From the IMG/VR virus record IMGVR_UViG_3300027782_000037, positions 64,001-128,000 of that record: 64,000 bases of DNA; one strand, given 5' to 3'. The stretch comes from a virus. Positions 29,852-54,607 of this stretch are shown here, in pieces. The translations under genes were made by a program, and so were the position numbers. The notes under the pieces were generated by a model, which did not search any database, was not told where the DNA came from, and saw only the letters and a list, made by a program, of their open reading frames with translations. Position 1 is the first letter of the stretch; each line of letters begins with the position of its first letter.

Positions 29852-30871
29852 TTATAGTCCAGCTCCAGCCAGAGCATATCTCGCTGTTCCCGCATTTGTT
29901 TGGCAACCAACTAGTGCTCCGCACGCATTGATACGAGTTACTAAATCAGAAAGACTGCGACCTATTCCACCATAAAACAATCCATTTGCGCCAACCGCAG
30001 CTCCAGCCAGCCCAAATCTTACTGTTCCCACATTTGTTTCAGAACCAACCAGTGCACCACATGCATTGATTCTTGTTACTAGGTTGCTTTGACTGCAGCC
30101 AGAGCCAGCATAAAACAATCCATTTGCACCAACCGCAGCTCCAGCCAAATATCGTCTTGCTGTTCCCACATTAGTTTGCGAACCTACTAGTGCGCCACAG
30201 GCATTAATTCTGGTTACGAGATTGCTGGAGCTACCGCAAATCTGTCCACCATAAAACAATCCGTTTGCACCAACAGTGGCACCAGCAAGACCGATCCTTC
30301 CTGTTCCCACATTTGTTTGGGAACCAACCAGTGCACCACATGCATTGATTCTTGTTACTAGGTTGCTGGCTGTGCCGGTACAGCCAGCATAAAACAATCC
30401 ATTTGCACCAACAGTGGCACCAGCTAGATAATATCTTGCTGTTCCAACATTAGTTTGCGAACCTACTAGTGCGCCACATGCATTGATTCTGGTTGCTAGG
30501 TTAGTGTAGCAACCACCAAATCCACCATAAAATAATCCATTTGATCCTACTTTTGTCCCAGCAGGATATGTTCTTGCTGTTCCCACATTCGTTTGAGAAC
30601 CAACCAGTGCGCCACAAGCATTAATTCTGGTTACTAGGTTGCTGTCAGCAAAGTTAGAGCCAGCATAAAACAATCCCACAGTGGTACCGCTTGACTTACC
30701 ATAAAAGTTAGTAGGCATAGTGATTGCGCCGGTTTCTACACCTGCCAGTGTTCTTACTGTAGCACAGTTCAAACTAATCTGAGTTGTGCCAGTTCCGCCA
30801 AGTTCAAGTTGAACTGACTGTCCTGCGGTAGTTCCGCCTAATGATATTGGACCTGATGCATTTAATGCCAT
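29852..30871 (-). CDS. Kelch-like six-repeat beta-propeller adhesin with fibre-tip docking N-terminus
   Basis: Six 46-47-aa repeats GLFY(A/G)G-x-NLVTRINACGALVGSQTNVGTAR-x-LAGA.VG; N-terminus MALNASGPISLG...ISLN...VR.LAG...FYGKS. Confidence 0.75.
   Translation of the reverse strand: MALNASGPISLGGTTAGQSVQLELGGTGTTQISLNCATVRTLAGVETGAITMPTNFYGKSSGTTVGLFYAGSNFADSNLVTRINACGALVGSQTNVGTARTYPAGTKVGSNGLFYGGFGGCYTNLATRINACGALVGSQTNVGTARYYLAGATVGANGLFYAGCTGTASNLVTRINACGALVGSQTNVGTGRIGLAGATVGANGLFYGGQICGSSSNLVTRINACGALVGSQTNVGTARRYLAGAAVGANGLFYAGSGCSQSNLVTRINACGALVGSETNVGTVRFGLAGAAVGANGLFYGGIGRSLSDLVTRINACGALVGCQTNAGTARYALAGAGL
29856..30677. repeat. 138/141-bp tandem coding repeat x6
   Basis: Identical blocks recur at 279-bp spacing (30042/30321; 30169/30448). 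Confidence 0.9.
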
Positions 30872-30880
30872 ATCTTATAC

Positions 30881-31396
30881 CTATGGTGTACCGAACGCAG
30901 TAACGTTATTTGCAGCAATGAGATTTCCGGTGCTGTTCAAACTAAGAATATTTGCTCCACCATAACTGAATACTAATTTTGTGCCAACAGCAGTGATTGT
31001 AAAACCACCAACGACAACAATGTTACCAGCTGTCATATTGTTACCGGTAATATTTCCGGTAGAAGAAATTGCGCCAGCTGTTAAAATATTGCCAGTACTT
31101 GACATTAATCCAGCTGTTAAAATATTTCCGTGTATCGCATTACCAGTACTTGACATTAATCCAGCTGTTAAAATATTTCCGTGTATCGCATTACCAGTAC
31201 TTGACATTAAACCGGCAGTTAAAATATTACCGCCAGTTATGTTGCCACTGGCACTATTCACACCGGTAACCAATAATCCGGTGCTAGTAACAGTAGCGAT
31301 AGATACCGCATTACTTTGCAATACCAAATTACCAGTGAGATCACCAGTTTGGACTAAACTTGTTGTGGTTGAGGTTCCGGCTGATATATTACTCAT
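30881..31396 (-). CDS. Short fibre segment/adaptor
   Basis: STGNAIHGNILTAGLM repeats; C-terminal GNLIAANNVTAFGTP. Confidence 0.75.
   Translation of the reverse strand: MSNISAGTSTTTSLVQTGDLTGNLVLQSNAVSIATVTSTGLLVTGVNSASGNITGGNILTAGLMSSTGNAIHGNILTAGLMSSTGNAIHGNILTAGLMSSTGNILTAGAISSTGNITGNNMTAGNIVVVGGFTITAVGTKLVFSYGGANILSLNSTGNLIAANNVTAFGTP
31092..31210. repeat. Perfect 51-bp tandem repeat (2.3 copies)
   Basis: ccagtacttgacattaa starts at 31092, 31143 and 31194. Confidence 0.9.
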
Positions 31397-31405
31397 ATTT
31401 TCTCT

Positions 31406-34400
31406 TTAGATAATTACCCAACGTTGCCCAGCGGTAACTGTGACAACTACACCACTATTAGTAGTAATTGGTCCCACACTAAATCCATTTGTACCTGCTG
31501 CTATAGTATAATTAGCTGTTACATTGCTACCGTTAACTAAAATTCCGTTTGTGGCTGCTACAACAGGAGCACTTATTCCAGATGAAGTAAATGTCGCTAC
31601 GTTAGCTGTACCCGCAACACCAACAGTTACATTACCGCCGCTTGTGGTAATGCTTACATTACTTGTACCATTACTTATGTTTGAGCTACTACCAGTACTG
31701 ATACCAGTCAGTTGACTGCCGTTACCCAGTATGAAGCTACCTGTAATATTGCCAGTTGCCGATACAATACCGGCTGTTAAAATATTTCCGTGTATAGCAT
31801 TGCCAGTACTTGACATTAATCCGGCTGTTAGGATATTTCCACCAGTTACGTTACCAGTTACAGATAAATTACTAACAATGCTTATATTACTTGTGGCGTT
31901 ACTTGTTCCTGCTGCTATGGATAACGGATAAAAACTATTAGCACCAATATATAATACGCTGTTGTCAACTTGGTTGATAAAACCACCAGTACCATTTGAT
32001 GTTATTCTTAGTCTACCAGCTATCAAAGTACTGCTATCAGCAGTAGCGATGTTTCCAGTAACACTGACACTTGTACCTGTTATAACACCACCAACCACTG
32101 ATGATGCTGTGGTAGTTCCTGAGACACTTGTTGAAGTACCGGTTATAACGCCACCCACTACTGATGCTGCTGTTACCGCACCAGTGGCACTGATCAAACC
32201 GGCTGTGTGTAGGTTGCCACCTTGTATATTACCAGAAACGTTGGCTGTTCCAGATACATCAAGTTTAGCCCCTGGTGTGGAGGTACCAATACCCACATTA
32301 CCGCTATTGATATATGATGATGACGATGAGTTAGCATCAATTACTACACGCAGGACGTTGGATCCGTCTCTGGCAGCAAATTGAAAATTATTTGCTACGT
32401 CAACATAGATACCAGAGTCGTTTGTCAAACCAGTTGTTCTAGCTTGAACCGCATACGCAGCAGATGCCGCTGTTTTTGTTATTAGAAGATTACCACCCGT
32501 AACAAGATTACCGCCAGTAACAGCACCAGTGACACTGATTAATCCACCAGTTAATATGTTACCGCCAGTAATATTAGCAGCACTTGTAATAGTTGAAGTT
32601 GCTGAAATTAATCCAGCTGTTAACACGTTACCGCCGGTTACGTTACCAGTGGCGGTCACTAAACCAGCAGTTGTAATGTTGCCGCCAATTATGTTAGCTG
32701 CCGATGTAATTGTTGAAGTTGCTGAAATTAGTCCAGCTGTTAATAAGTTACCACCAGTTACGTTACCACTTGCCGAAACTACAGAACCTAATAAACTTGA
32801 TCCTGTAACAGTACCTGTTGCGCTAACTAAGCCAACAGTTGTAATATTTCCACCAACTACGTTAGCTGCTGAAGTAATAGTTGATGTAGCCGAAATTAAT
32901 CCAGCTGTCAGTAAGTTACCACCGACTACGTTAGCTGCCGAAGTAATGGTACTTGTAGCCGAAATTAAACCAGCTGTCAGTATATTACCACCAGTTACGT
33001 TACCAGTAGCAGTCACTAGACCAGCTGTTGTAATATTTCCACCAATTACATTGGCCGCCGAAGTAATTGTGCTAGTAGCACTAATTAAACCAGCTGTTAA
33101 GATATTTCCACCAGTTACATTTCCAGTAGCAGTCACCAGTCCTGTGGTTGTAATATTTGCACCAACTACATTGGCTGCTGATGTAATTGTACTCGTAGCT
33201 GAAATCAATCCAGCTGTTAGTAAGTTGGCACCGGCTATATTACCAGTTACACTTAACACATTACCAACAGTATTAAATGTTAATCCTGCGGTAGCTGCTA
33301 AGTTACCATTGGTATTAAATTGTATCTGTGTATTTGCGCCTGCCGCTGTAATGTTACCGCTAATACTACCAGCAAAAGCTCCGACAAAGAATCCCGCTGT
33401 GGTAATGTTACCAGTAGCACTTATCTGTCCAGCTGTTAGAATATTGCCATGTATCGCGTTACCAGTACTTGACATTAACCCCGCTGTTAGAATATTGCCA
33501 CCAGTAATATTAGCTGCACTTGTAATAGTACTTGTAGCTGAAATTAAACCAGCTGTTAATAAATTACCACCTGTAATATTCGCAGCACTTGTAATAGTGC
33601 TTGTTGCTGAGATTAAACCAGCTGTCAGTATATTACCACCAGTTACGTTACCGGTAGCAGTCACTAGTCCAGCAGTTGAAAGGTTACCACCGACTACGTT
33701 TGCTGCTGATGTAATTGTACTTGTTGCTGAAATCAATCCAGCTGTCAGTATATTGCCACCAGTTACGTTACCAGTAGCCGTCACTAATCCAGCAGTGGTA
33801 ATATTACCACCGACTACGTTACCTGTAGCAGTTACCAAACCTGCGGTTGTAATATTACCACCGATAATATTAGCTGCCGAAGTAATGGTGCTTGTAGCCG
33901 AAATTAATCCAGCTGTTAACAAATTGCCACCTGTTACGTTACCAGTAGCAGTCACCAGTCCTGCGGTTGTAACATTGCCACCAATTACGTTACCAGATGC
34001 ACTAACAACAGTACCCAATACACTTGATCCTGATACCGTTCCTGTTGCTGAAATTAACCCAGCTGTTAATAAGTTACCGCCTACTACGTTGCCAGATACA
34101 GTTAATAAATTGCCAACTGTGTTGAATGTCAATCCAGCAGTAGCAGCTAAGTTGCCGCTATTATTAAATTGTACTTGAGTGTTGGCACCGGCAGCAGTTA
34201 CGTTACCACTAATACTACCAGCAAATGTTCCAACAAAGAAACCTGCTGTGGTAATATTGCCAGTAGCACTTACTTGACCTGCTGTTAAGATGTTACCATG
34301 TATAGCATTGCCTGTGCTACTCATTACGCCAGCAGTTAGGATATTTCCGCCGGCTAAGTTTCCAGTAGATGTAATTCCAAGGCCCGCTGTTATATTACCA

Positions 34401-36355
34401 ACTGAACTAATGCCTAAACTAGATACCCAGACATTAGATGCTGTGTTATATAATAGTGTTGCGTATTCCGCGCCCGCAGGACCAACTCCAATACCGCCAT
34501 TGTTAGCTGCTGTTGCGTTGGCAGCGTTATTGGCCATATTAATTTGTAAATCATTTGTGGTAATTGTATTTGAATTAATTGTGGTTGTTGTACCGTTAAC
34601 AGTTAAGTTACCGGTAATAACAACGTTACCATCAGTACCACCTGATCCATTTGGATCAATAGTTAATGTTGGGCCAGCACCTACAATTAAGTTACCACTT
34701 AGTGTGATACCACCAACTGATATAGTTCCACTTGTTGTGAAATTACCACCAGTCGTGTTGCCTGTTACGCTTAAACTTGTTAATGTACCTAAACTAGTGA
34801 CATTTGGCTGTGCCGCTGTAGCAAGAGTACCTGTAATTAATGTACCTGATAAATTACCGCCGGCAATATTACCAGTTGTACTGATTAATCCACTTGATGT
34901 TAAACTAGTTAATGTACCAACCGAAGTAATATTTGGTTGAGCATTTGTTGTAACAGTTGCAGCAGTTCCAACAGCCGATCCTGCTGATACAGCAAATGTT
35001 GCGTTTGCTACAGTACCAGTTACGTTACCACCGGTTAATGATGTTAATGTAGAACCATTACCAATGTAATAGTTTGCTGTTATATTTCCAGTTGAACTAA
35101 TCAATCCTGCTGTTAGAACATTGCCGCCAGTTACATTAGCAGTAGCACTTACCAGACCGGCAGTAGTAATATTACCACCAACAACGTTTGCTGCTGATGT
35201 AATTGTTGAAGTTGCCGAAATCAATCCAGCTGTTAATAAGTTACCGCCAGTTACGTTTGCAGTTACCGAAACTACAGCGCCTAATAAACTTGATCCTGTG
35301 ATAGTTCCGGTTGAACTAATTAATCCTGCTGTTAATAAATTGCCGCCAGTAATATTACCATTTCCAGCTATAGTTCCAAGTACACTAACACCAATTGGTG
35401 AAAATACAGCAACGTTGCCAACTGTGCTAACTGATATAGTTACATTTGCGTTTGCCGCAGCAATGTTTAGATTACTTCCACCGTTTACAACATTGGATAC
35501 ACTTGTAATAATACCAGTAAGTTGCGATCCATTACCCAGTATAAAGTTACCAGTGACGTTTCCTGTTGCTGAAACTAAGCCGGCCGTTAAGATGTTGCCG
35601 TGTATTGCATTGCCAGTACTGCTCATTATACCGGCTGTTAGGATATTTCCACCAGTTACATTACCAGTAGCAGTTACTAATCCAGCGGTAAGAATATTTC
35701 CACCGATTACGTTTGCTGCGGATGTAATTGTACTTGTAGCTGAAATCAATCCGGCTGTTAATATATTACCGTGTATGGCGTTGCCAGTACTGCTCATCAA
35801 TCCAGCAGTTAATAAATTGCCACCAGTTACGTTACCTGTAGCAGTTACTAGTCCAGCAGTTGAAATATTGCCGCCAATTACGTTTGCAGCGGATGTAATC
35901 GTACTTGTAGCTGAAACTAATCCGGCTGTTAATATGTTTCCACCAGTTATATTACCGCTTGCTGAAACTAATCCAGTTACATACTCTCCGGTTGGCGCAA
36001 ATACCGCCACATTACCTACTCCACTTACCCCAATAGTTATATTTGCAGCAGAAGCGGAAATAGTTACATTACTATTACCATTATTAATATTGCTTGATGA
36101 TGTACTAACACCTGTTAATAAAGAACCATTACCTAGAATATAATTTCCAGTTACGTTACCAGTAGCTGAAACTAATCCTATGGTTAGTAAGTTACCTCCT
36201 ATGATGTTACCGGCTGCTGAAATGTTACCAGATGCGCCTATATTGACAAATCCAGTCGCCGACCTAGTCCAGGTATTATTACCTGAAGAATAAGTGTAAA
36301 CAATATTGTTTACTGTTGCAGTTTGCCCATCAACGGGCGATACGGGAAAAGCCAT
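31406..36355 (-). CDS. Long fibre protein (1649 aa)
   Basis: Dozens of 17/23-aa G/N/T/I/A repeats (GNILTAGLISATSTITSAANVIG); N-terminus MAFPVSPVDGQ; C-terminus GPIT..SGV.VTV..GQRWVII. Confidence 0.85.
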   Translation of the reverse strand: MAFPVSPVDGQTATVNNIVYTYSSGNNTWTRSATGFVNIGASGNISAAGNIIGGNLLTIGLVSATGNVTGNYILGNGSLLTGVSTSSSNINNGNSNVTISASAANITIGVSGVGNVAVFAPTGEYVTGLVSASGNITGGNILTAGLVSATSTITSAANVIGGNISTAGLVTATGNVTGGNLLTAGLMSSTGNAIHGNILTAGLISATSTITSAANVIGGNILTAGLVTATGNVTGGNILTAGIMSSTGNAIHGNILTAGLVSATGNVTGNFILGNGSQLTGIITSVSNVVNGGSNLNIAAANANVTISVSTVGNVAVFSPIGVSVLGTIAGNGNITGGNLLTAGLISSTGTITGSSLLGAVVSVTANVTGGNLLTAGLISATSTITSAANVVGGNITTAGLVSATANVTGGNVLTAGLISSTGNITANYYIGNGSTLTSLTGGNVTGTVANATFAVSAGSAVGTAATVTTNAQPNITSVGTLTSLTSSGLISTTGNIAGGNLSGTLITGTLATAAQPNVTSLGTLTSLSVTGNTTGGNFTTSGTISVGGITLSGNLIVGAGPTLTIDPNGSGGTDGNVVITGNLTVNGTTTTINSNTITTNDLQINMANNAANATAANNGGIGVGPAGAEYATLLYNTASNVWVSSLGISSVGNITAGLGITSTGNLAGGNILTAGVMSSTGNAIHGNILTAGQVSATGNITTAGFFVGTFAGSISGNVTAAGANTQVQFNNSGNLAATAGLTFNTVGNLLTVSGNVVGGNLLTAGLISATGTVSGSSVLGTVVSASGNVIGGNVTTAGLVTATGNVTGGNLLTAGLISATSTITSAANIIGGNITTAGLVTATGNVVGGNITTAGLVTATGNVTGGNILTAGLISATSTITSAANVVGGNLSTAGLVTATGNVTGGNILTAGLISATSTITSAANITGGNLLTAGLISATSTITSAANITGGNILTAGLMSSTGNAIHGNILTAGQISATGNITTAGFFVGAFAGSISGNITAAGANTQIQFNTNGNLAATAGLTFNTVGNVLSVTGNIAGANLLTAGLISATSTITSAANVVGANITTTGLVTATGNVTGGNILTAGLISATSTITSAANVIGGNITTAGLVTATGNVTGGNILTAGLISATSTITSAANVVGGNLLTAGLISATSTITSAANVVGGNITTVGLVSATGTVTGSSLLGSVVSASGNVTGGNLLTAGLISATSTITSAANIIGGNITTAGLVTATGNVTGGNVLTAGLISATSTITSAANITGGNILTGGLISVTGAVTGGNLVTGGNLLITKTAASAAYAVQARTTGLTNDSGIYVDVANNFQFAARDGSNVLRVVIDANSSSSSYINSGNVGIGTSTPGAKLDVSGTANVSGNIQGGNLHTAGLISATGAVTAASVVGGVITGTSTSVSGTTTASSVVGGVITGTSVSVTGNIATADSSTLIAGRLRITSNGTGGFINQVDNSVLYIGANSFYPLSIAAGTSNATSNISIVSNLSVTGNVTGGNILTAGLMSSTGNAIHGNILTAGIVSATGNITGSFILGNGSQLTGISTGSSSNISNGTSNVSITTSGGNVTVGVAGTANVATFTSSGISAPVVAATNGILVNGSNVTANYTIAAGTNGFSVGPITTNSGVVVTVTAGQRWVII

Positions 36356-37392
36356 TAGTACCTTCCAATTGCTACTTCAATTACACCTGGTAAATTAGAA
36401 TTATAATCTTCCAGTGATTTACCAATGATACACCCAGGCAAGTATTTATTAGAATCTAAAACAGTGGCTACTCCTTTTATGGTACTAGAAACCAATCTAT
36501 CTCCCTTACGAATTGTACCCACTACGCTGCATGGAACACGCCCCGTTAGTGCTACTGGTAATCCAACTGCGCCTGAATTCATTAAGTAAGCAGGTTCAGT
36601 TGAAATAACACCGGCTACTCTGGTATCATGCGATATAGTTGATGCAGTAATTTCATCTGCACCGCCGAATATAACTAAAGTACCAGGAGAATAGCTGTTA
36701 TCAGCAACATAAGTTTCAGCCAAGTCAGCGTATTGTGCTGAAGTTGCCTTAGCAAATACTGTATTAAAGTATGTTGTCGCATTACCAATGTTACCTACAC
36801 CGTTAGCTTGTAAGTTAGTAAGACCGGCTGTTGTCCATGCTGCTATCGCAGTACCTCCAACAGTAATAGTAATATTACCGTTACTAGCATCAATGTTAGC
36901 TGAAGTATTGCCATTTGTAATGGCATTAAATGTGCCGTTTACACCAGCTGATGCCCCAAAATCGTCAATCCAATAGTAGCTCGTGCCATCAAAAGTAAAA
37001 CGATATTGAACGTTAGTTGTGGTGTTGTACCAAAAATCGCCCACGCTTGGACTTGATGGAGCTGTGCCACTTGATGTTGATCTAATGCCTCCACCAAAAA
37101 TGTTACCAGAAGTACTGATAATCCCACCAGATAGTATATTTCCGCCAGTTATGTTACCAGTAACGCTTACTGTTGTACCTGTGTGATTTGTGGCAGAAAT
37201 ATTGCCACCAGTTATGTTACCCGTAGCGGAAATTAATCCAGCGGTTAGTATATTTCCGCCAGTTATGTTACCGGTGGAAGATACTAATCCAACAGTTACT
37301 ACATTTCCCCCAATAACGTTTCCTGTTACCGTTAAAAATGTCTGAACTGTTAGATTGCCATATACGTTTGATCCACTTTGTAATTTAGCCAT
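36355..37392 (-). CDS. Fibre protein with C-terminal Peptidase_G2-like intramolecular chaperone domain
   Basis: SAQYADLAE.Y...VAGVIS..PAY.MN...VAL.GRVPC.V.G....GD.LVS. Confidence 0.75.
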   Translation of the reverse strand: MAKLQSGSNVYGNLTVQTFLTVTGNVIGGNVVTVGLVSSTGNITGGNILTAGLISATGNITGGNISATNHTGTTVSVTGNITGGNILSGGIISTSGNIFGGGIRSTSSGTAPSSPSVGDFWYNTTTNVQYRFTFDGTSYYWIDDFGASAGVNGTFNAITNGNTSANIDASNGNITITVGGTAIAAWTTAGLTNLQANGVGNIGNATTYFNTVFAKATSAQYADLAETYVADNSYSPGTLVIFGGADEITASTISHDTRVAGVISTEPAYLMNSGAVGLPVALTGRVPCSVVGTIRKGDRLVSSTIKGVATVLDSNKYLPGCIIGKSLEDYNSNLPGVIEVAIGRY

Positions 37393-42640: not shown

Positions 42641-42643
42641 GTC

Positions 42644-42670
42644 AAAAAGACGGGGCTTCTGAGCCCCGTC
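42644..42670 (-). terminator. Intrinsic terminator
   Basis: GACGGGGCT-caga-AGCCCCGTC-TTTTT. Confidence 0.88.
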
Positions 42671-45600: not shown

Positions 45601-47221
45601 TAGCAGTTCCAGTAGAACTAATTACACCAGGAGTGGCAATATTACCTGCTATAATATTACCTGTTACATTTAATGTGCTAGTTACATTTCCACTTAGACT
45701 TAGGGTATTTGCATTTACTGCGCTATTGGCAACAATATTACCCAATGCCGAAACATCAGTAATAGCAACAATATACTGAGCAGTTACATTGCCAGTTACA
45801 TTTAGTGCTGATGTTACATTACCAATTAAGCTCAATGAATTAGCATTAACAGCAGCGTTTGTTGAAACATCCCCAACAAAACTTACTCCTGTGTCATAAA
45901 ATGTAGCGGCTACATTTGAATTTGCCCCAATAGCAATTACTAAATTACCATCGGCACTAGCAATATTTGCGTATGTATTGCCATTTGAAATTTTGGTTGA
46001 TGAAACGTTGGCTGCATTAATGTTACTAATATATGCGCCATCACCAATAAAATAATTTGCTGTTTGAATATTACCAACTGCGCTTACTAGGCCAGCAGTT
46101 AATAAGTTACCACCATAAACGTTGCCAGTTGCTGTTAATGTCGTTGATGCAATTACATTAGCACCAGTTATATTACCACTTGCGCCTGTTGTTGAAAAAT
46201 TAGCAGCAGTTACGTTGCCACCTGCGCTAATAGCATTTGTTACGCTAACATTGTTGCCATATACATTTCCGGCAGCACTTACAGCGTCTACTGCGCTGAT
46301 ATTATTGGCAGCAACGTTACCAGTTACATTTAATGAGCTAGTTACGTTTCCACTTAGACTTAGGGTATTTCCATTTAATGCGCCGTTAGCAACAATATTG
46401 CCTACAGCCGAAATGTCAGTAATAGCCACTAAATTGCCTACTGTAGCTGTGCCTGTAGCACTTACGTTACCAGTAAAATCTACTCCATTGTTGTAAAATG
46501 TTGAAACTAGTACATTGGCAATTGTAATTACCAAGTTACCTGCATCAGATCCAATGTTAGCTGAACTATTACCGTTGCTGATCTTAGTTGCCGAAACGTT
46601 ACCTGGATTAATGTTACTGATATAGTAACCATCTCCAATAAAGAAATTTGCGGTAGAGATATTTCCTGTAGAACTTATTTCACCTGTCGTAGCAATATTT
46701 CCCACAGTGATATTACCAGAAATATTCAATGGACTTACAATGTTGCCAGCTATTGAAATATTTCCACCGATTAATAATTCACCGGTTACATTGGCATCAC
46801 CAGTAGTTAGGGTAGCATAGCTAAGAATATTAATATTTGTATTGTCAGTTGCGTTTGAATCTGTAAAAACAGTTGCAAACGATGTTAAGCTCTCGTCCCA
46901 GACAAAAGCAATGTTATTTGATGTGCCGCGTTGGCCTATATAACCAATATCAACAGTAGGAGAACCAGTTTGGTTACTGGCCAGGTATAATAATGGATCT
47001 TCAATTGTTACATTTGTGGTGTTAATGGCGGTTACATTACCTGTAACGCATAAATCACCCTGAACCGTTAGGTTTGAACTATAGACAAAGTTGTTAGCCA
47101 ATAAATTCGATGTTATCGAATATGGTTGTACTTTGGTATTAGCATCAATACCGAAATAGGTATTACCCGAAATAGCATCGGTAATTTGATTATTATTAAT
47201 TCTGGTTAATGTTCCGCTCAT
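42692..47221 (-). CDS. Long fibre protein (~1509 aa)
   Basis: Start MSGTLTRI at 47221 after SD GGGAG; D.ANKQYVD..AQGLD.KASV module; 44-aa (132-bp) repeats near 44147-44470. Confidence 0.85.
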   Translation of the reverse strand: MSGTLTRINNNQITDAISGNTYFGIDANTKVQPYSITSNLLANNFVYSSNLTVQGDLCVTGNVTAINTTNVTIEDPLLYLASNQTGSPTVDIGYIGQRGTSNNIAFVWDESLTSFATVFTDSNATDNTNINILSYATLTTGDANVTGELLIGGNISIAGNIVSPLNISGNITVGNIATTGEISSTGNISTANFFIGDGYYISNINPGNVSATKISNGNSSANIGSDAGNLVITIANVLVSTFYNNGVDFTGNVSATGTATVGNLVAITDISAVGNIVANGALNGNTLSLSGNVTSSLNVTGNVAANNISAVDAVSAAGNVYGNNVSVTNAISAGGNVTAANFSTTGASGNITGANVIASTTLTATGNVYGGNLLTAGLVSAVGNIQTANYFIGDGAYISNINAANVSSTKISNGNTYANIASADGNLVIAIGANSNVAATFYDTGVSFVGDVSTNAAVNANSLSLIGNVTSALNVTGNVTAQYIVAITDVSALGNIVANSAVNANTLSLSGNVTSTLNVTGNIIAGNIATPGVISSTGTATVGNVSTIGFITATGNVSAGNLIAAASVSAVGSVYTGNVYSGNIISAAGNIITNQTFVGNALSGNTLIITSTSAGLQFSVTGNINAGNTWITNVPDPYAALDVANKQYVDSVAQGLDIKASVAYATAGNIFGTGYTYNNGSSGVGATLTATAVGNLTIDGTVVSAGERVLIKNEVGAFVNNTTQSAAFNGIYTVTTAGSPSVAYVLTRATDFDIGTEMASAFTFVEYGSTQADTGWVCITNNPITVGTTQILWSQFSGAGQYSGGNAISVTGTVIDALYDGNTISRNGSNQLYIPANAPLVTPNIGDATGSSLSVTGSITGNVISSTTLSIIGNINAGNILTSNISLSGNVLGNLNVDNQITGNVINAVIVNTGNLSLSGNVTSTLNVTGNVISGNLVAVYDVSALGNVVSNNALNGNTLSLSGNVTSALNVTGNVAAGNLVAVYDVSAFGNVVSNNALNGNTLSLSGNVTSTLNVTGNVISGNLFTTVNVSAAGNVIGGNILTGGDISSFGNITGNLVNAVTVSASGNITGGNVLVGTGIISTSGNATVGNIDTSGQISALGNISTGNFFIGDGAYISNINAANVSSTKITNGGSYANIASTGGNLVIAVGAASNVVATFYDQGVSLIGNIATNASINANQLSLSGNVVSNLIVTTDVTANNFYGVSTVSVGGNVISGNVSTGNISAGGNVLSGGNFSATGNAIAGNVLTAGNVSATGNLISGNILTGGYISSTGNIQSGTTFLVYTTANSVALGANITLTTGATLAINATDSMLIPVGNVAQRPGSPATGMLRYNSTVSQCEIWNGAAWVAVGGSSYTVIANEQFAGDGSTTVFTLGSSQTTVSCIVTINGVVQIPTTAYAVSGVFPTCVLTFTEAPAIGDIIDVREITTTTSVTAISNTSGNSIVAIQETTGQVDITGNLVAQLNPAAPSLTANSTMSFRLVNNTTLAILVRGTDGVTRTANITVS

Positions 47222-47282: not shown

Positions 47283-50200
47283 TTATAGTCTTCCAACCAA
47301 TATTTCTATTACTCCCAGATTTCCAGCAAAACCAGTTATTGCTTTACCTATTACTGTACCCATTTTAGGGTTAGTTTCGGCTCTAGCTCGTCCATTTCCA
47401 GCAGACACCATCATAGCACCAGCGGTAACTGGACCTTGAACCAAACAAGGTACGCGACCTACTAGTGCAAGGGCTACTACAAATTTTCCGGTTAATCCCG
47501 AATTCATTTGATACGCCGGATTTGTACTAATAATTCCAGCAATCAGTGGGTCATTATCCTGAGTACTAATGGTTAATTCTTCTTCGCCGCCAAAACTTAA
47601 TACTGTTCCGGGGGTATATTCCGCATCTGCTAAGTACAATTCTGCTAAGTCAGCGTATTGTGCTGATGTTGCGTTGGCAAATATTGTGTTAAAGTAATTG
47701 CTTGAGCTACCAATATTTCCTACCGCATTAGCATTTGAATTAACAATATTTCCCACAGTAATTGTGCCAGTACCAACTGATAAGTTGCCACCTGTTATAT
47801 TACCAGCTGCGCTAAATGCCGCTGATGCTGCCAATGTAGCAGCAGTTACAGCAAGAGTGGCTCCACCTGCTATCCCTGTATTCCCTGTAACTTGAATACG
47901 AGCATCATAGTCCACAACAGTAGCACTACTATTAAAGTCAATATAAGGAGTACTAGCAACGCCATCAATGCGTCCAATATTAACAGCTCCACCACCGTCC
48001 GTTGCTATGTTAACTCTACCCGTAGCAGTGCTTACTGTAATCTGCGCTGCCGAAGTAATATTACCGGTGGCACTTACAAAACCCCCAGCAGTGATATTAC
48101 CAGTTACCGATAAATTGCTTAGGGTACCAACACTAGTGGCAACTACGCCAGTCAACGCCGAACCATTACCATTAAAGAAATTACCGGTTACATTACCAGT
48201 AGCACTTACTAAACCACCAGTTAATAAATTACCAGTTTGAGTAGTGCCTGATACCGATAAACTTGTTAATATGCCAACAGAAGTAATGTTTGGCTGTGCT
48301 GCGGTAGATACAGTACCTGCTGTTGTGGCAGATGTAGCAGCCCCCACAGTCAATGACGACGCTGTACCAGTTAACCCAGTACCAGCACCACTGAAACTTG
48401 ATCCAGTAACGGTGCCAGTAGAACTGATCAATCCAGCAGTTAATATATTTCCGCCAGTTACATTACCAGTAACAACCATGGCATTTGCGGCAGAATTAAA
48501 TGTAAATCCCGCACTTGCATTTGCTTGACCAGCATTATTATAAATGACCTGTGTATTAGCACCTGGTACTGTTATATTACCTGAAATATTACCCGTTAAA
48601 TTACCAATAAAATATGGCGCAGTAATATTTCCTGTGGCACTGATTAATCCAGCAGTTAATATATTACCACCAGTAACATTAGCTGTTACTGCCAAACTTG
48701 TTAAGGTACCAACTGAGGTAATATTAGGTTGAGCATTTGTTGTGACAGTAGCCGCAGTAGTAGCTGAATCAGCAATTATGCCAGTTAATAATGAACCGTT
48801 GCCATTAAAGAAGTTACCGGTTATATTACCGGTAGCACTTACCCGTCCAGCAGTTAAGATATTTCCGCCAGTTACATTACCAGTAACCACTATAGCATTT
48901 GCAACAGAATTAAAAGTAAATCCTGCACTTGCATTTGCTTGCCCATCATTATTATAAATGACCTGTGTATTAGCACCAGGTACTGTTAAGTTACCTGAGA
49001 TATTACCTATTAAATTACCAATAAAATATGGCGCAGTAATATTTCCTGTGGCACTTACTATGCCAGCAGTCAATATATTACCACCAGTAACATTTGCTGT
49101 TACTGCCAAACTTGTTAATGTACCAACTGAAGTTATATTTGGTTGTGCATTTGCTGTAATAGTAGCGGTAGTACCTGATGACACTGCATATGTCGCATTA
49201 GCCACAGTTCCAGACACATTGCTACCAGTAATTGATGATAATAATGCTCCATTGCCAATTATACGACCACCAGTAATGTTACCAGTAACCACCAAGGCAT
49301 TTGCAGCAGAATCAAATGTAAATCCTGCACTTGCGCCAGCATTGCCATTGTTATTATAAATGACCTGAGTATTTAATCCTGGAATCGTAATATTACCAGT
49401 AACATTACCAAAAAGTGTACCGACGAAATATCCTGCTGTTGTGATATTACCAGTGGAACTTATTTGTCCAGCTGTTAAGATATTACCACCAGTTACGTTT
49501 GCAGTTACAGCTAAACTACTTAAAGTGCCTACTGAAGTAATATTTGGTTGTGCATTTGCTGTAACAGTCGCCGAAGTACCAACAGCACTACCCGCTGATA
49601 CTGCATATGTTGCATTAGCCACATTACCTGATACATTTGCACCGGTAATGGAACTTAATGTTGCGCCATTGCCAATTATGTAACTACCAATGACATTACC
49701 AGCAGCACTGGCGTAACCACCAGTTAATAAGTTACTACCAGTAACAGTACCAGTCGATACTAAACTATTTGATGCAAAATCAAAGGTAAGCCCGGCACTT
49801 GCGTTTGCTTGTCCATTGTTATTGTAAATGACCTGTGTATTTGCCCCGGGAACTGTTAAATTACCCGAAATATTTCCTATTAAATTTCCAACAAAATACG
49901 GAGCAGTTATATTACCGGTAGATGAAACAATACCGGCAGTTAGTAAATTACCACCACTAATATTGCCGGTTGCGGTTAATGATCCAGCTGTGGCAATATT
50001 TCCGCCAATGATATTAGCAGTACTAGTAATAGTACTTGTTGCTGATATTAGACCAGATGTTAGTAAATTGCCGCCGGTGATATTTGCTGCTGCGGTAATT
50101 GATCCGGTAGCTGATACTAGCCCGGCGGTAACTAAGTTGCCACCAATTATATTACCACTTGCCGATACAACCGCACCTAGGTGACTTGACCCGGTTACCG

Positions 50201-52610
50201 CCCCTGTTGCACTAATTAATCCGCTGGTCAATAGATTGCCAGAGCGTGTGTTTCCAGTTACACTTAAACTCGTGAGTGTACCAAGGCTTGTAATATTTGA
50301 TTGGGCGTTTTCTGTTACTGTACCCGAAAAACCAGAGGATGCGGCATATGTTGCATTAGCCACAGTGCCAGAGACATTTGCACCACTAACTGCATAGGCT
50401 GTGTCGGCTATAGTAGCACGAGATACGGTACCACTTACATTACCACCTTGTATATTGCTTAATGTATTTCCTGCTCCAATAAATTGAACACCACTGATAT
50501 TGCCAGTAACACTTATATTATCAGCAGTTAGGTTACCGCTAAATGTAGGCAAATAGTTAGCTACATTAGCATTACCGTAAGTTGTAGTGATACCTGTTAA
50601 TTGGCTACCGTTACCAATAAAATAATTACCAGTAATATTACCAACAGCCGTTATAGTTGCGGCAGATACAATATTACCTGCCGCAACATTACCGGTGGCG
50701 GTAATTAACCCAGCAGTTGTAATATTACCAACTGTAGCATTACCCGTAGCTGACACTAATCCAGCAGTGGTAATATTACCAACTGTAGCATTACCAGTTA
50801 TAGAAATTAACCCGCCTGTAAAAATATTGCCGTAGGTAACATTACCAGCCGCACTTATTATACCGGTAGTTATAATATTACCAGCGATGATATTACCTGT
50901 GGCCGATATAAGACCATCGGTGGCTAAATTGCCACCAGTAATATTTGCGGCTGAAGTAATTGACCCGGTAGCTGATACTACTCCAGGGGTCACTAAATTA
51001 CCGCCGGTAATGTTACCAGTTACCAACAGAGCATTCGCTGCAGAATCGAATGTAAATCCCGTGCCTGCTCCAATATTACCATTGAGATTATACAATACCT
51101 GCGTATTAGAACCGGGTATAGTAATATTTCCTGAAATATTTCCTATTAAATTACCAATAAAATTAGGTGCAGTAATATTACCAGTTGTGCTTACTGGATT
51201 TAGCAAATTAAATGAATTGCTGGTCATTGTGGCAAACAAACTATTTGCCGTAGTAAATTGTATATTGCCCGATGGAGTAATGTTTATTGAACTATTACCG
51301 TAGGAATTAGATAGCGAACTTATCGAAGTAAGGTATGTAATAAATCTAATGTCAATAATATCAGATGACATTGGAATTTGTGAGAATGTAATCGAATTTC
51401 CCGTAACAGTATAGGATAAGTTAGGTACTTGATTTACGCCATTGATTGCGACTAAAATTCCTGCTGCGGTTGATGATTCCACCAACAAATATGAATCAGA
51501 TACACCATCTGGTGTGATCTGTTGATCTATAATAGTTCCCGGTGATATGACGTTGGCACCTGTTACCCAGCTGGCACCATCCCAAGTTTCAATACTGCTT
51601 ATTATAGTATTAAATCGTGTTACCCCTATGGCGGGGCTCGACGGACGTTGTGCTGTATTACCCGCCGGAATACCAATTCCAGCGGAACCTGCAAATAATA
51701 TTAAATTACCATTACTGGCAAATGTTGTATCCACTATACTAATATTGGCGATATTGGCATTTCCGCTTACAGATATATTTGCCAAAATGCCGACTGATTC
51801 TAGACTTGAATATAGTACATTTGCGCTTAATGTGTTTCCTATTAATGCATTAGCATAAACCGATGCGGCTGCAATACCGGTTAATTGACTACCATTACCA
51901 ATAAAATAGTTACCAGTAATATTACCAGTGGCGGTGACTAATCCGTTCGTTATAATATTACCACCAGTTACATTACCTGTGGCCGATACCAATCCAATAG
52001 TTAATACATTACCACCGTCGATGTTAGCCGAACTGGAAATAGTTGATGCGGCGGAAATTAATCCAGCTGTTAATAAATTGCCACCAGTTATATTAGCTGT
52101 TGCCGATATTGAACCAGGAGTTAGTATATTACCACCAGTAATATTGCCGGTTGCAGACAACCGCCCCCCTGTTAATAAATTACCGCCTAATATATTAGCC
52201 GAGCTGGTAATCGTCCCTAGGACACTAACACCGTTAATGGAAAATACTGCGATATTACCCACGGTACTAACAGATATTGTTACGTTAGCATTAGCTGAGG
52301 CGATATCCAGATTACTACCACCGTTTACTACGTTCGAAACAGAAGTAATAATACCAGTTAATTGTGATCCGTTACCTAAAAAATAATCGGCAGAAATATT
52401 GCCAGTAGCGGTAACTGTTGATAAAGTCAACGAGTTTGACCAAACTCTTGTGTTATTAGTTGATATTGTTAAAATACTACTATTGGCACCAGCACCTAAA
52501 CTGGGTTCTGCTTGCCCCAATGATAAGAATTCGTATCTAGATGAGTCAAGATTAGCGTAAGGTACTACGGGCGACCGCCCACTTAGCAGTTTTGTTGTGT
52601 TTATTGACAT
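47283..52610 (-). CDS. Long fibre protein (1775 aa) with C-terminal Peptidase_G2-like chaperone domain
   Basis: Fibre repeats, AQPNITSVGTL.SL and PGANTQVIYN modules; SAQYADLAE...GRVPC C-terminus. Confidence 0.85.
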   Translation of the reverse strand: MSINTTKLLSGRSPVVPYANLDSSRYEFLSLGQAEPSLGAGANSSILTISTNNTRVWSNSLTLSTVTATGNISADYFLGNGSQLTGIITSVSNVVNGGSNLDIASANANVTISVSTVGNIAVFSINGVSVLGTITSSANILGGNLLTGGRLSATGNITGGNILTPGSISATANITGGNLLTAGLISAASTISSSANIDGGNVLTIGLVSATGNVTGGNIITNGLVTATGNITGNYFIGNGSQLTGIAAASVYANALIGNTLSANVLYSSLESVGILANISVSGNANIANISIVDTTFASNGNLILFAGSAGIGIPAGNTAQRPSSPAIGVTRFNTIISSIETWDGASWVTGANVISPGTIIDQQITPDGVSDSYLLVESSTAAGILVAINGVNQVPNLSYTVTGNSITFSQIPMSSDIIDIRFITYLTSISSLSNSYGNSSINITPSGNIQFTTANSLFATMTSNSFNLLNPVSTTGNITAPNFIGNLIGNISGNITIPGSNTQVLYNLNGNIGAGTGFTFDSAANALLVTGNITGGNLVTPGVVSATGSITSAANITGGNLATDGLISATGNIIAGNIITTGIISAAGNVTYGNIFTGGLISITGNATVGNITTAGLVSATGNATVGNITTAGLITATGNVAAGNIVSAATITAVGNITGNYFIGNGSQLTGITTTYGNANVANYLPTFSGNLTADNISVTGNISGVQFIGAGNTLSNIQGGNVSGTVSRATIADTAYAVSGANVSGTVANATYAASSGFSGTVTENAQSNITSLGTLTSLSVTGNTRSGNLLTSGLISATGAVTGSSHLGAVVSASGNIIGGNLVTAGLVSATGSITAAANITGGNLLTSGLISATSTITSTANIIGGNIATAGSLTATGNISGGNLLTAGIVSSTGNITAPYFVGNLIGNISGNLTVPGANTQVIYNNNGQANASAGLTFDFASNSLVSTGTVTGSNLLTGGYASAAGNVIGSYIIGNGATLSSITGANVSGNVANATYAVSAGSAVGTSATVTANAQPNITSVGTLSSLAVTANVTGGNILTAGQISSTGNITTAGYFVGTLFGNVTGNITIPGLNTQVIYNNNGNAGASAGFTFDSAANALVVTGNITGGRIIGNGALLSSITGSNVSGTVANATYAVSSGTTATITANAQPNITSVGTLTSLAVTANVTGGNILTAGIVSATGNITAPYFIGNLIGNISGNLTVPGANTQVIYNNDGQANASAGFTFNSVANAIVVTGNVTGGNILTAGRVSATGNITGNFFNGNGSLLTGIIADSATTAATVTTNAQPNITSVGTLTSLAVTANVTGGNILTAGLISATGNITAPYFIGNLTGNISGNITVPGANTQVIYNNAGQANASAGFTFNSAANAMVVTGNVTGGNILTAGLISSTGTVTGSSFSGAGTGLTGTASSLTVGAATSATTAGTVSTAAQPNITSVGILTSLSVSGTTQTGNLLTGGLVSATGNVTGNFFNGNGSALTGVVATSVGTLSNLSVTGNITAGGFVSATGNITSAAQITVSTATGRVNIATDGGGAVNIGRIDGVASTPYIDFNSSATVVDYDARIQVTGNTGIAGGATLAVTAATLAASAAFSAAGNITGGNLSVGTGTITVGNIVNSNANAVGNIGSSSNYFNTIFANATSAQYADLAELYLADAEYTPGTVLSFGGEEELTISTQDNDPLIAGIISTNPAYQMNSGLTGKFVVALALVGRVPCLVQGPVTAGAMMVSAGNGRARAETNPKMGTVIGKAITGFAGNLGVIEILVGRL

Positions 52611-52611
52611 A

Positions 52612-52944
52612 TTAGCCTGTTAATGTTTCTAGGTAACTCAAAACTAATTGTCCACTAGTATCGTCGCTTGCTGAAAGTTGTAATTCGTCCCCGTATTGTA
52701 AAATCAACCTACCTGTAAGAATACTTGCTGCATCATCTGTCGGAACACTATAGTTGTTGATCAATGACGTAGACACACTTGATCTAAGTATACTGGCAGA
52801 AACTTGAATAGTGTCAACACCGGTATTACTAATCTGTGCTAATAACACCACTGTAGCATATCCTAACGGAGGAGTATACACGGTTGTCGTAGTAGTAGTA
52901 ATATCTACTAAAGTTGTTCTAAATAAATTTAATGCGCCCGACAT
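52612..52944 (-). CDS. Small beta-sandwich adaptor
   Basis: VYT.P.GY..VVLLAQISN...G.L.L..GD.L...LSYLE. Confidence 0.7.
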   Translation of the reverse strand: MSGALNLFRTTLVDITTTTTTVYTPPLGYATVVLLAQISNTGVDTIQVSASILRSSVSTSLINNYSVPTDDAASILTGRLILQYGDELQLSASDDTSGQLVLSYLETLTG

Positions 52945-52966
52945 AGTTTTTCCTTTTTTTTACTAA

Positions 52967-54607
52967 TTAATCGCCTGATATAGCTAAAATGTACGGTGTC
53001 ATTTGAGCAAATAAACTTTTATAAAAAGCATCACCTGTAATAGTTGCAGTCGCTTGATTAACAATAAATCCGTCGCCTACCTTAAAATTACCCTTTTGAT
53101 CTGTACTTGTATAGGTTACAACTCCGCCACCAGTTTGTACCACTTCGTTGGCTTCAATTGGAATTCCTCCGTATTGGGGCAATGCGGTAGCAGGATTTGT
53201 TCCTGCACCCACATACTCAAACGTATGAGCCGATGCAATAATACTGCTGCGAGTGTATAGTGAGAGTGTTGTGCCTGGAGCAGCATTTCCTAAATATATT
53301 TGCTGTACCAAAACTGTACTACTACCAACTGCTGGAACATTAGGTAATATTGTGTCAATAGTATAAAATTCTGGATCTCCGTCTATTACTACAACAGTAT
53401 TAACATGAGGTTGGCCATTGGATAAATTATCAATTACAAAACTTCCTTGAAATTGACTTACAATAGTTCCAGAAGTTTGCAGTGGACCAATACCTTCTGC
53501 CACCAATCCATAATTTCCAATAGAACAATCTGATCCGTTAAGAGTAATGAATGATCCTGATTCAACTTTAACTCCAATGGCACATGCAATTGTATAAATG
53601 TTAACTGATTGACTATATGCCGAATTTACAAGATGTATACCTATCCCACCTCTATTAATAATAGTAAAGAAACCTACAATCATTGCTTTAGTTCCAGTAC
53701 ATACACTACCATCAACATACACAGCAGTTCCTGTTGTTGTACTTGAGGTCAGATTTTGTATATATGGACTGACAAAAGCAGTAGTTATAGTACTTGGATC
53801 GTAGCTAAATGCTTTGCCTGTATAATCTCTTACTGTTACACCCCATACATAAGATCCTCCGGACATGTAAAACATATCACTGCTTGCTACAGTTGGCTTT
53901 ATGAATACATTTCTTAAATTATCACCCATTAATGCCGTATTGGGAGGAATAGTAATAGGCATATCTTCAATATATGTACCAGGAGCAACGTTAACAGATA
54001 CATTTCCCCCCAATCCGGTTGCTAATGTCATAGCAGCCTCAATTGTTAATAATGGAGAAGTTAGTCCACCCGAATTGTTATCATTTCCATTTTTTGCTAC
54101 ATAAATTATGTTAGAGCTGGCAGAAGTGATATTTATATTAGCGTTGATATTCTGTGCTGTTAGATTACCAGAAACACTAATATTTCCAGCTAATGCCAAT
54201 AAACCTGAACTTGGGTTAAATGTTAAATTTGCACTACCACCAAATTTTCCACTATCGTTAAATTGTACTGATGAATTTGGTTCGGCAGGATTGTTGATAT
54301 TAGCATAAGCGGTAATTGGAGCACCATTAGAACTAACATTATTACTAGTTTGCCAAGCGTTGGACGCTACATCAAATCGTAGTCCAGCAAATGTATTAGC
54401 ACCTGTTTGTCCTAGTAATCCCATGTCAGTAATTGCGCCCGTATTATTGGCGGCTACTGTTAAGAAAGGGCTTGTTGTAATCGAAGGAACATTATAAGTT
54501 ACATTACCTGTAAAAACTGTCTGAGCATTAATTGTAAGAACGCCATTGCCTGCAGGAGTTCCTACATTTAACGTATAATCAGTATTGATATTTTTAACCG
54601 AAGCCAT
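52967..54607 (-). CDS. Virion structural protein with pectin-lyase-like beta-helix
   Basis: IYVAKNGND.N.G.L..P..TI..A...V.PG.Y.E..PI......GDNLR; C-terminal HTFEYVGAG..YTSTDQ.GNF. Confidence 0.75.
   Translation of the reverse strand: MASVKNINTDYTLNVGTPAGNGVLTINAQTVFTGNVTYNVPSITTSPFLTVAANNTGAITDMGLLGQTGANTFAGLRFDVASNAWQTSNNVSSNGAPITAYANINNPAEPNSSVQFNDSGKFGGSANLTFNPSSGLLALAGNISVSGNLTAQNINANINITSASSNIIYVAKNGNDNNSGGLTSPLLTIEAAMTLATGLGGNVSVNVAPGTYIEDMPITIPPNTALMGDNLRNVFIKPTVASSDMFYMSGGSYVWGVTVRDYTGKAFSYDPSTITTAFVSPYIQNLTSSTTTGTAVYVDGSVCTGTKAMIVGFFTIINRGGIGIHLVNSAYSQSVNIYTIACAIGVKVESGSFITLNGSDCSIGNYGLVAEGIGPLQTSGTIVSQFQGSFVIDNLSNGQPHVNTVVVIDGDPEFYTIDTILPNVPAVGSSTVLVQQIYLGNAAPGTTLSLYTRSSIIASAHTFEYVGAGTNPATALPQYGGIPIEANEVVQTGGGVVTYTSTDQKGNFKVGDGFIVNQATATITGDAFYKSLFAQMTPYILAISGD

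Follow-up and report, generated by a model that had tools for sequence, protein, structure and literature searches.

Candidate three-part joints between consecutive rod genes of a phage fibre gene cluster

No part of a phage genome is more variable, or less well annotated, than its fibre genes, and where many of them lie in a row it has to be asked which of their products belong to one fibre and how they are held together. Twelve such genes, all on the minus strand, occupy positions 29852-54607 of the window analysed here, a 64,000 nucleotide (nt) stretch corresponding to bases 64001-128000 of one 157,276-bp viral contig (IMG/VR record IMGVR_UViG_3300027782_000037). An earlier reading of this DNA, made from the letters and open reading frames (ORFs) only (the sequence-only reading), had proposed that matching terminal motifs join about ten of the proteins head to tail in gene order. 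Comparison with related phages indicates that the region probably encodes several virion fibres that are made of multiple segments and most likely belong to the tail; the separate segments would be coupled by small adaptors at three-part joints. The joint itself is most likely an expanded version of the knee of the T4 long tail fibre, recurrent in hundreds of aquatic phage contigs.

All of the motifs on which the proposal was built are present where that reading had placed them. Two of its junction types occur twice: type A, an INGV domain followed by a gene with an LTRI-type start, and type B, a YN....S.D..F end followed by a small adaptor gene and then by a MAKL-type start. When the 765 ORFs of the whole contig were scanned with regular expressions, each paired motif was found only in its two named genes, so that chance can be excluded. 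The single-copy motifs PSVGDFWY, MAFPVSPVDGQ, RWVII, GDLTGNL, VTAFG and MALNASGPISL were likewise all recovered. The rod proteins are rich in GN..TAG..SATGN repeats and resemble each other only in those repeats, and the long plus-strand ORFs within them are mirror images of the repeats rather than genes.

Conservation of the FDE joint

The two type-B junctions, B1 and B2, lie in series in the following genes (lengths in amino acids, aa).

41888..42613, minus strand: 241-aa predicted proximal segment; PHROG tail-fibre and head-decoration families (7e-28), CTAAATA box at 42641
41012..41878, minus strand: 288-aa putative FDE adaptor with a lectin insert; Pfam Laminin_G_3, AlphaFold2 (AF2) model and Foldseek
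37655..40990, minus strand: 1111-aa predicted middle rod; orthologues of 574-1345 aa keep both termini and vary in the length of the repeat body
37400..37642, minus strand: 80-aa putative minimal FDE adaptor of joint B2; three repeats ending FDEVT
36355..37392, minus strand: 345-aa predicted distal segment; ESM Atlas lead and gene order in 7 relatives

Each joint has three parts: a peptide at the C-terminus of the upstream protein, a small adaptor gene, and an N-terminus of 'KLLSG' type on the downstream protein. The motif YN....S.D..F makes up the last 13 residues of both the 241-aa and the 1111-aa proteins, and the MAKL.SG..VYGNL starts are at 40990 (1111-aa) and 37392 (345-aa). The 241-aa protein starts LTRIRAGQISDIDYKQ, with its LTRI...QI.D motif at 42575-42607; its last residues, YNAGTTSLDTIFI (41891-41929), form the upstream half of B1 and are kept in six related phages. 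The 1111-aa rod starts MAKLLSGTTVYGNL (40949-40990) and ends YNTSLQSVDFTFG (37658-37696). The 345-aa protein starts MAKLQSGSNVYGNL and carries a PSVGDFWY hairpin module (37027-37050) and a conserved C-terminal domain of ~150 aa.

Relatives were collected by IMG/VR searches with the 241-, 80- and 288-aa proteins, and three of the contigs were extended. Six phages, this one included, keep both FDE joints in series. Their first gene has an LTRI/DYKQ module or MAILSFPTSP at the N-terminus, ends ..VYQ.YN[AS]..[GST]SLDTIF. and is followed by a 288-289-aa adaptor; the middle rod of 574-1345 aa starts MAKLLSGT.. and ends ..YN[ST][ST]L.S.DFTF. before a 73-87-aa adaptor and a MAKL[QL]S.. gene, the last gene having 125, 146, 345, 1357 or 1598 aa. 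Residues that distinguish the two paralogous joints are kept in six of six, with ..SLDTIF. accompanying an RLT.DG..YFDEIT adaptor at B1 and ..S.DFTF. accompanying an ARL.NTGNL..IQFDEVT adaptor at B2. DNA identity between the two type-B copies in the window is only 50-61%, which argues for an old duplication with both copies maintained rather than a recent tandem one.

The association also holds when contigs are chosen by a single part of the joint. Selection by YN..TNSLDT[VI]F alone gave 66 non-duplicate copies, and in all 66 the peptide stands at the very C-terminus, at most 3 residues from the stop. The next gene carries an FDE module in 63 of these 66, and a MA[KQ]L..G[TS]..-type start comes after it in 49 of the 49 cases with readable downstream sequence. 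Selection by a DNA pattern for MA.L..GTRIYG gave 117 starts with upstream sequence. In 81 of them the adjoining upstream gene has an FDE module, and among the 51 unique cases in which another ORF precedes that gene, 48 of these ORFs end [YF]N....S.D..F; the 3 exceptions are spurious short ORFs. True modules picked by FDEVTGI have the same neighbours, and in three contigs with distant FDE members the preceding gene ends ..N....S.D..F. and the following one starts MA[KR]L... as well. The triad survives adaptor identities of 35-45%, unrelated upstream N-termini and unrelated cargo, on contigs of 5-370 kb and in a marine/freshwater cyanophage family. The proposed type-B junction is thereby upheld for both copies, in that the same partners are kept while bodies, lengths and adaptor cargo change. 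These comparisons show both copies to be three-part units, conserved and portable, in a large number of divergent phage contigs.

The module common to the 80-aa and 288-aa adaptors, previously unnamed and defined here by profile A1/A2 with repeat ends [FLY]DE[VI]T, comprises ~70 aa in three repeats of ~22 residues, with FDE(V/I)T at the end of each. Compared one against another with hidden Markov models (HMMs), the repeats are mutually similar, with mean scores of 8-17 bits. FDEVT occurs at residues 22, 42 and 73 of the 80-aa adaptor (37565-37579, 37505-37519 and 37412-37426), and FDE at residues 19, 39 and 281 of the 288-aa adaptor. In the latter, repeats 1-2 (residues 1-43) and repeat 3 (260-288) flank a LamG jelly-roll at residues ~47-236, which matches Laminin_G_3 (PF13385) with 39.7 bits against a cut-off of 27.6 (E 6.8e-10). 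The LamG core has a predicted local distance difference test (pLDDT) value of 80-94 in the AF2 model, for which Foldseek returned the PAPP-A LamG domain, pentraxins and laminin G (E 1e-8 to 1e-6), and orthologues 64-67% identical to the 288-aa adaptor lie in the same gene position.

Neither the 80-aa adaptor nor the FDE module belongs to a Pfam or PHROG family, and a full-text literature search for the joint motifs returned no papers. The 80-aa adaptor has 19 close clusters, and in a set of 1.84 billion proteins its family profile detects 245 representative clusters (E<=1e-3). A tblastn search of 50,697 GenBank phage records with the 80-aa adaptor and a consensus-like relative gave no match, although the profile still detects the module in gp332 of Synechococcus phage S-SRM01. 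Among 73 distinct proteins, the three repeats are contiguous in 40, split 2+1 in 19 and split 1+1+1 in 14, and the last class carries inserts of 230-650 aa. The module occurs alone, in front of LamG in proteins that it begins, interrupted by inserts, and at the C-terminus of large proteins, namely 1,000-1,300-aa 'RYWVGGTG' beta-helix or Gly-rich proteins. Because its repeats can be far apart, it can carry LamG lectins, beta-helices and Gly-rich domains at the joint. The idea that lectin-type domains can be inserted at the connectors is borne out to this extent, LamG and other domains being found inserted in or fused to the adaptor module.

The MAKL N-terminus was considered as a fourth FDE-type repeat and rejected; its mean score was 2.1 bits against 0.3 for shuffled sequences, below the 95th percentile of the shuffles. 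A gene of 63-68 aa (M.I.F.F....G...DAL.L.D.H.LT..EI.AMKQ.R..NW) was seen in five loci (L032, L033, L010, L241 and L262) between a gene ending ..S.DF.F and a giant RYWVGGTG beta-helix protein with a C-terminal FDE module.

A second joint type and its cyanophage counterparts

The first three genes of the cluster contain a junction built on a different adaptor.

52967..54607, minus strand: 546-aa fibre segment; PHROG tail-fibre families (1e-61)
52612..52944, minus strand: 110-aa putative small adaptor; phrog_1276 (function unknown)
47283..52610, minus strand: 1775-aa predicted rod; from the translation, with a C-terminal domain matching phrog_22593 and alignment A5

The 52967-52612-52610 junction, listed by the sequence-only reading as a single-copy link, is conserved in 17 IMG/VR loci and represents a second joint type. 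In these loci the upstream gene ends ..SLFAQMTP[YF]ILA[LI].., the adaptor has 108-114 aa, and the downstream protein starts ..[ST][KR]L[LI][ST]G[RK].[PV]V..Y. The C-terminal peptide is kept in 17 of 17 despite six N-terminal types among the upstream proteins, and wherever the sequence behind a 110-aa-adaptor homologue could be read, the N-terminal peptide is kept, on proteins ranging from 170 to 1775 aa. The 110-aa adaptor is unrelated to the FDE adaptor. In the window, the upstream half of the joint is the end of the 546-aa protein, SLFAQMTPYILAISGD (52970-53017), and this segment probably starts a chain. The 1775-aa rod has the N-terminal peptide TKLLSGRSPVVPY (52557-52595), an AQRP motif, the GN..TAG..SATGN repeats, and a conserved C-terminal domain of ~150 aa that begins SAQYADLAE (47640-47666).

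Relative to another contig, G003 (G003:C1:134442-137281), the 546-aa gene is an in-frame fusion of two genes. Its first ~130 residues correspond to the beginning of a 203-aa G003 gene, and the rest, residues 130-546, to the final part of a 487-aa one; the genes that separate these two in G003, for a 106-aa paralogue of the adaptor and an INGV protein of 136 aa, are missing here.

Homologues of the 110-aa adaptor are present in 85 GenBank cyanophage records. In the cultured Synechococcus phage S-SRM01 (NC_070963), the two joint types follow one another along gp329-gp333. The end of gp329 is ..SLFSTLTPFILALGGD, and gp330 is the 110-aa adaptor homologue. Next comes gp331, with MSKFLSGR at its start and ..NSLDFIFI at its end; it is followed by gp332, whose N-terminal part is an FDE module (31.7 bits), and by gp333, which opens with MALLK. 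In S-SKS1, also cultured, the 110-aa-type joint occurs twice, in SWZG_00012-00008. These cyanophages differ in that their 110-aa adaptors are only 36-43% identical to the one described here. The proteins of S-SRM01 gp329-gp334 and of S-SKS1 carry the automatic annotations 'baseplate wedge subunit', 'tail fiber protein' and 'hypothetical protein', and none is described as a joint. The 'baseplate wedge subunit' labels (NC_070963, 212414-220791; NC_020851, 8157-18317) look wrong because the proteins have fibre-type N-termini (MATPIRI[KR]RS..P.K.P) and share their joint peptides with the fibre chain described here. With both joint types in a cultured phage, the idea is directly testable.

Likeness to the T4 knee

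In T4, genes 34-35-36-37 are in physical order, and gp35, a monomer, links the gp34 trimer to the gp36 trimer, to which it binds (PMC3004832; PMC5537660). The tower-like joint domain of gp35 consists of residues 1-21 and 324-372, with an ILEI-like domain and a beta-sandwich resembling a carbohydrate-binding module (CBM) inserted between them (bioRxiv 10.64898/2026.03.06.709160). As in the T4 long tail fibre, consecutive genes of the present cluster would specify consecutive segments, and a small protein that is not a rod is encoded between rod genes. The 288-aa adaptor shares the layout of gp35 along the chain, terminal joint segments placed around a beta-sandwich; in the AF2 model its termini have pLDDT 40-55. 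There are also differences from T4. Two FDE joints lie in one chain, one of them with an adaptor form of 73-80 aa that carries no cargo, the FDE module is an explicit triple repeat, and a second, unrelated adaptor family (110 aa) is found in the same cluster.

The arrangement suggests how the parts may be assembled. Separate rod proteins, presumably trimers, would be coupled end to end, with each adaptor, encoded directly behind the upstream rod, binding the C-terminal peptide of that rod and the 'KLLSG'-type N-terminus of the next. The 110-aa adaptor would join the 546-aa to the 1775-aa protein, the 288-aa FDE adaptor would join the 241-aa to the 1111-aa protein, and the 80-aa FDE adaptor would join the 1111-aa to the 345-aa protein. 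The FDE chain would be a fibre with two knees, ending in a conserved C-terminal tip or chaperone-like domain and presumably attached to the tail. Three equivalent, loop-tolerant elements in one chain point to a single-chain partner of a three-fold rod end; one adaptor chain would offer these three elements to the rod, as gp35 does between (gp34)3 and (gp36)3, with a predicted stoichiometry of 3:1:3.

The joint would thus work in the manner of the T4 knee. Because homology could not be demonstrated at the sequence level, the FDE adaptor is not assigned to the gp35 family. The end of gp35, ..VFGQEFREV, bears a visual likeness to ..VSGIFDEV.. that is not significant.

Several results count against this reading. 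HMMs of the FDE module scored -2 to 0.3 bits against gp35 and its spliced tower segments, and the MAKL start compared with the T4 gp36 N-terminus, and YN..S.D..F compared with the C-termini of gp34 and gp36, did no better than shuffles. The FDE module is not folded alone by AF2 (pLDDT 48 for the 80-aa adaptor and 40-55 for the termini of the 288-aa adaptor), and a few proteins have five FDE repeats instead of three. In 22 cases, a MAKL/KLLSG start without an adaptor lies directly behind a structural protein of ~1,000 aa ending ..RLSWTEAQA, a homologue of the 947-aa structural protein at 24578-27421 of the window, with the MAKL-type gene 3 nt later; the KLLSG/MAKL plug is therefore not exclusive to adaptors. 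The supporting contigs share ancestry, and their counts overstate independence. The chain-ending role of the ~150-aa domain is drawn from an ESM Atlas lead and gene order, and searches for Peptidase_G2 (PF11962) on the contig (E<=10) and of the Protein Data Bank (PDB) with the A5 profile gave nothing and nothing credible, respectively.

Part of this would be expected if the small proteins were instead assembly chaperones, C-terminal caps or adhesins of the upstream fibre, of Tfa/gp38 type, and the MAKL gene encoded an independent fibre. The coupling of the C-terminal peptide to FDE genes (63/66) is slightly tighter than that of MAKL starts (81/117), MAKL starts also stand behind a different structural protein with no adaptor, failure to fold alone is what a partner-dependent protein would show, and LamG cargo would suit an adhesin. 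This explanation is nevertheless rather unlikely. A MAKL-type gene follows the C-terminal peptide and FDE gene in 49 of 49 cases, often with overlapping stop and start codons, the 73-80-aa forms have no binding domain, FDE proteins of 1,000-1,600 aa are unlikely chaperones, and the 288-aa layout is shared with gp35, a structural component of a fibre. None of the 80-, 110- and 288-aa adaptors matched a tail-fibre-assembly chaperone family (Tfa/gp38/gp57 type) in Pfam or PHROGs.

Adjacent fibre or spike genes whose products assemble via conserved terminal modules and have exchangeable distal parts are also known from CBA120 (TSP1-4), G7C (gp63.1/gp66) and Klebsiella jumbo phages of the RaK2/phiKp24 type. 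In such branched receptor-binding protein complexes, N-terminal domains dock on gp10-like branching domains of another spike with no separate small adaptor. The capsid protein encoded on the contig is closest to that jumbo-phage group, being 62-67% identical to those of jumbo myoviruses of PA5oct, RaK2 and Vibrio 2.275.O type. The contig differs from the group in that no T4 gp9/gp10 N-domain was found on it.

If the segments are coupled by three-part joints, the triad would show which neighbouring genes build one fibre, where that fibre bends and where lectins or other domains are mounted. The joints point to natural break points for the exchange of host-range modules, and the FDE adaptor offers a compact natural coupler for trimeric proteins. 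A further-reaching proposal, advanced tentatively, is that the FDE module is a single-chain pseudo-threefold coupler which, together with the 110-aa family and modules that start and end chains, forms a readable grammar of fibres. Were this true, sequence alone would suffice to predict how many fibres a phage has, the order of their segments and their kinks, and rods and tips could be freely recombined.

Chain ends, remaining junctions and genomic setting

The other genes of the cluster and the boundaries of its transcription units are as follows.

54627..54683, minus strand: start of unit 1, a terminator hairpin (54659-54683) followed by the late-promoter-like box CATAAATA (54634); intergenic reading
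42692..47221, minus strand: 1509-aa predicted rod in its own transcription unit; CTAAATA box at 47249, terminator at 42644-42670
42635..42670, minus strand: boundary of units 2 and 3, a terminator hairpin (42644-42670) followed by a CTAAATA box (42641); intergenic reading
31406..36355, minus strand: 1649-aa predicted rod; MAFPVSPVDGQ start and ...AGQRWVII end
30881..31396, minus strand: 171-aa short segment; GDLTGNL N-terminal module and NNVTAFGTP end (translation)
29852..30871, minus strand: 339-aa last protein of unit 3; starts MALNASGPISLGG (translation)

Terminators made of a hairpin and a T-run, together with (C/T)ATAAATA or CTAAATA boxes, delimit three transcription units, from which the fibre parts would be made late. 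Unit 1 comprises the 546-, 110- and 1775-aa genes, unit 2 only the 1509-aa gene, and unit 3 the genes from 241-aa through 339-aa; gaps between genes inside the units are -1 to 22 nt. The starts at 47221 and 42613 are preferred to those of the longest ORFs because relatives start at the equivalent residue, with MSGNLTRI and MGLTRI, and CTAAATA late-promoter-like boxes lie 20-28 nt upstream.

The conserved ~150-aa domain (alignment A5) ends both the 345-aa and the 1775-aa proteins. In 7 relatives the gene for the protein that bears it closes the run of fibre genes in the operon; elsewhere the next gene always has an LTRI, DYKQ or MAFP-type start, and in no case does an adaptor gene or a MAKL-type start come next. 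The domain resembles the Peptidase_S74/Peptidase_G2 intramolecular chaperones, which are conserved C-terminal domains usually on the last fibre gene, and differs from them in having no Pfam match even at E<=5-10 (E<=5 for the isolated domains) and no sequence relative in the PDB. Peptidase_S74 was considered for the ends of the 345-aa and 1775-aa proteins and was not found. In the ESM Atlas, the features of the 345-aa protein score 0.98, with TM 0.96, to clusters in which 16-37% of the members carry Peptidase_G2, a match taken as a lead only. The domain of the 345-aa protein probably ends a chain, and the 1649-aa rod behind it probably starts a further fibre. Transcription units and chain-ending domains together suggest four fibres, composed of the 546/110/1775-aa proteins, the 1509-aa protein alone, the 241/288/1111/80/345-aa proteins and the 1649/171/339-aa proteins.

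The remaining junctions of the sequence-only reading fared less well. The 1509-aa rod has an LTRINNNQITD start (47177-47209), ends ...SFRLVNN..VRGTDG.TR and has its INGV domain near the C-terminus (42938-43051), where a weak match to Phage_T7_tail (PF03906, the N-terminal anchoring domain of T7 gp17) scored 18.1-18.6 bits, below the cut-off of 25.2 (E 1.6e-4 to 1.6e-3). No Phage_T7_tail match was detected in the INGV copy of the 1775-aa rod, which lies at 51345-51446 (residues 389-422), ~1,350 residues from the C-terminus, so that type A there amounts to gene adjacency and not to a terminal junction. In relatives, LTRI-type starts come after at least five unrelated C-termini; those of LTRINNNQITD type follow ends such as ..WKRTALTGGY, ..VSWRVG, ..AQVQNYTS and ..AIGNAITT or the conserved C-terminal domain, and DYKQ-type starts follow ..SFQLVNN..VRG.DG.TR.. 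or the same ~150-aa domain. A terminator and a promoter, moreover, separate the 1509-aa from the 241-aa gene. Stand-alone INGV proteins do precede [IL][ST][KR]I..GQ.. starts in three loci (L007, L008 and G003), and type A would be at best a loose regularity.

The link from the PSVGDFWY module to a MAFP-type start was not sustained, such starts following four unrelated genes (in L001, L010, G003 and G004). The two remaining single-copy links, RWVII to GD.TGNL and VTAFG to MALNASGPISL, are supported by no more than 2-3 loci. In 3 of 5 loci, an RWVII-type end stands before an MS.IS.G.. start; in L182 and L292 the end reads ..GQ[RK]W[IV][IV][LI] and the start MS.[IL]S[AT]G... in the next gene. NNVTAFGTP ends come before an ..ASG.ISLG.. 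start in 2 of 3 loci, this window counted; the C-terminus of the 171-aa protein recurs in L289 and L290, one of which has the ..ASG.ISLG.. start next. Searches with the 171-aa protein gave mostly repeat matches and few informative loci.

These results bear on the proposal that ten to twelve proteins form one chained or branched head, neck or whisker appendage in gene order, governed by a complete terminal code. The genes are co-oriented and tightly packed between capsid and neck/tail genes, and the recurrence of RWVII-type ends before MS.IS.G.. starts and of INGV proteins before [IL][ST][KR]I..GQ.. starts would fit such a code. The proposal is improbable, however, given the variety of C-termini that precede LTRI- and MAFP-type starts, the ~1,350 residues between the INGV domain and the end of the 1775-aa rod, the division into three transcription units, and the operon-closing domain at the end of two of the proteins, which also speak against a single chain of about ten. 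Nor does the location between head and neck genes carry over, the S-SRM01 chain lying away from the capsid genes and adjoining a gene annotated as a long-tail-fibre distal subunit. Inherited gene order plus an ancient tandem duplication, without contact between the terminal motifs, would be in keeping with the paralogy of the two FDE joints and with the many supporting contigs from related freshwater phages, and is very improbable and already disfavoured, as the copies are only 50-61% identical in DNA yet keep their terminal peptides while the bodies diverge, and the triad persists in cyanophages and at 35-45% adaptor identity with unrelated N-termini and cargo.

A further recurring pair, absent from 29852-54607, was noted in L004, L008/L009, L014, L020 and L267, where a ..[IV]P.SST[LV].I[VYF].. 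end is followed by an M.LTLDG[TI].G[IV]S..GN start; the upstream gene is of LTRI/DYKQ type or MAKL type. The 339-aa protein that closes unit 3 consists of seven tandem repeats of ~45 residues (NLVTRINACGALVGSQTNVGTAR.YLAGA.VGANGLFYGG) with a conserved Cys in each, and belongs to no Pfam or PHROG family.

The contig derives from an uncultured, T4-like freshwater phage, probably a giant one, and has a CheckV completeness of ~45%. T4-type genes for the head protease, scaffold and major capsid protein are at 58.5-61.5 kb of the window; those for the neck, sheath stabiliser, sheath, tube and head closure are at 5-19 kb. At ~23 kb outside the window there is a gp25-like baseplate gene, and Baseplate_J was not found on the contig. 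A homing-endonuclease-like gene (57665-58504, minus strand; phrog_314, 8e-22) is directly downstream of the major capsid gene and ~3 kb upstream of the fibre cluster.

A further joint is seen at 24578-27915 (minus strand). A fibre-like protein of 162 aa (27427-27915) has MAVIIDGTTGIS at its start and ..RRYPYSPETIALGD at its end, and the 947-aa structural protein encoded downstream of it (24578-27421, phrog_5838) starts MAKNVIIERYVFTPST and ends ..NARLGWTESQA; G003 has an equivalent pair, ..LRYPYSATTIAISD followed by MRHVIIENYTFTPST. Two Gly-rich proteins of 520 and 226 aa with GGAGGGG runs (22183-23745 and 56952-57632, both minus strand) resemble the Gly-rich cargo fused to FDE modules elsewhere (e.g. 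P0023, P0027, P0063). Two additional fibre-type genes of 92 and 356 aa at 20785-22130 (minus strand) have a GD.TGNL..QTNG N-terminal module and carry the motif GNTAQRP..P..G..R.N, which also precedes the INGV domains of the 1775-aa and 1509-aa proteins.

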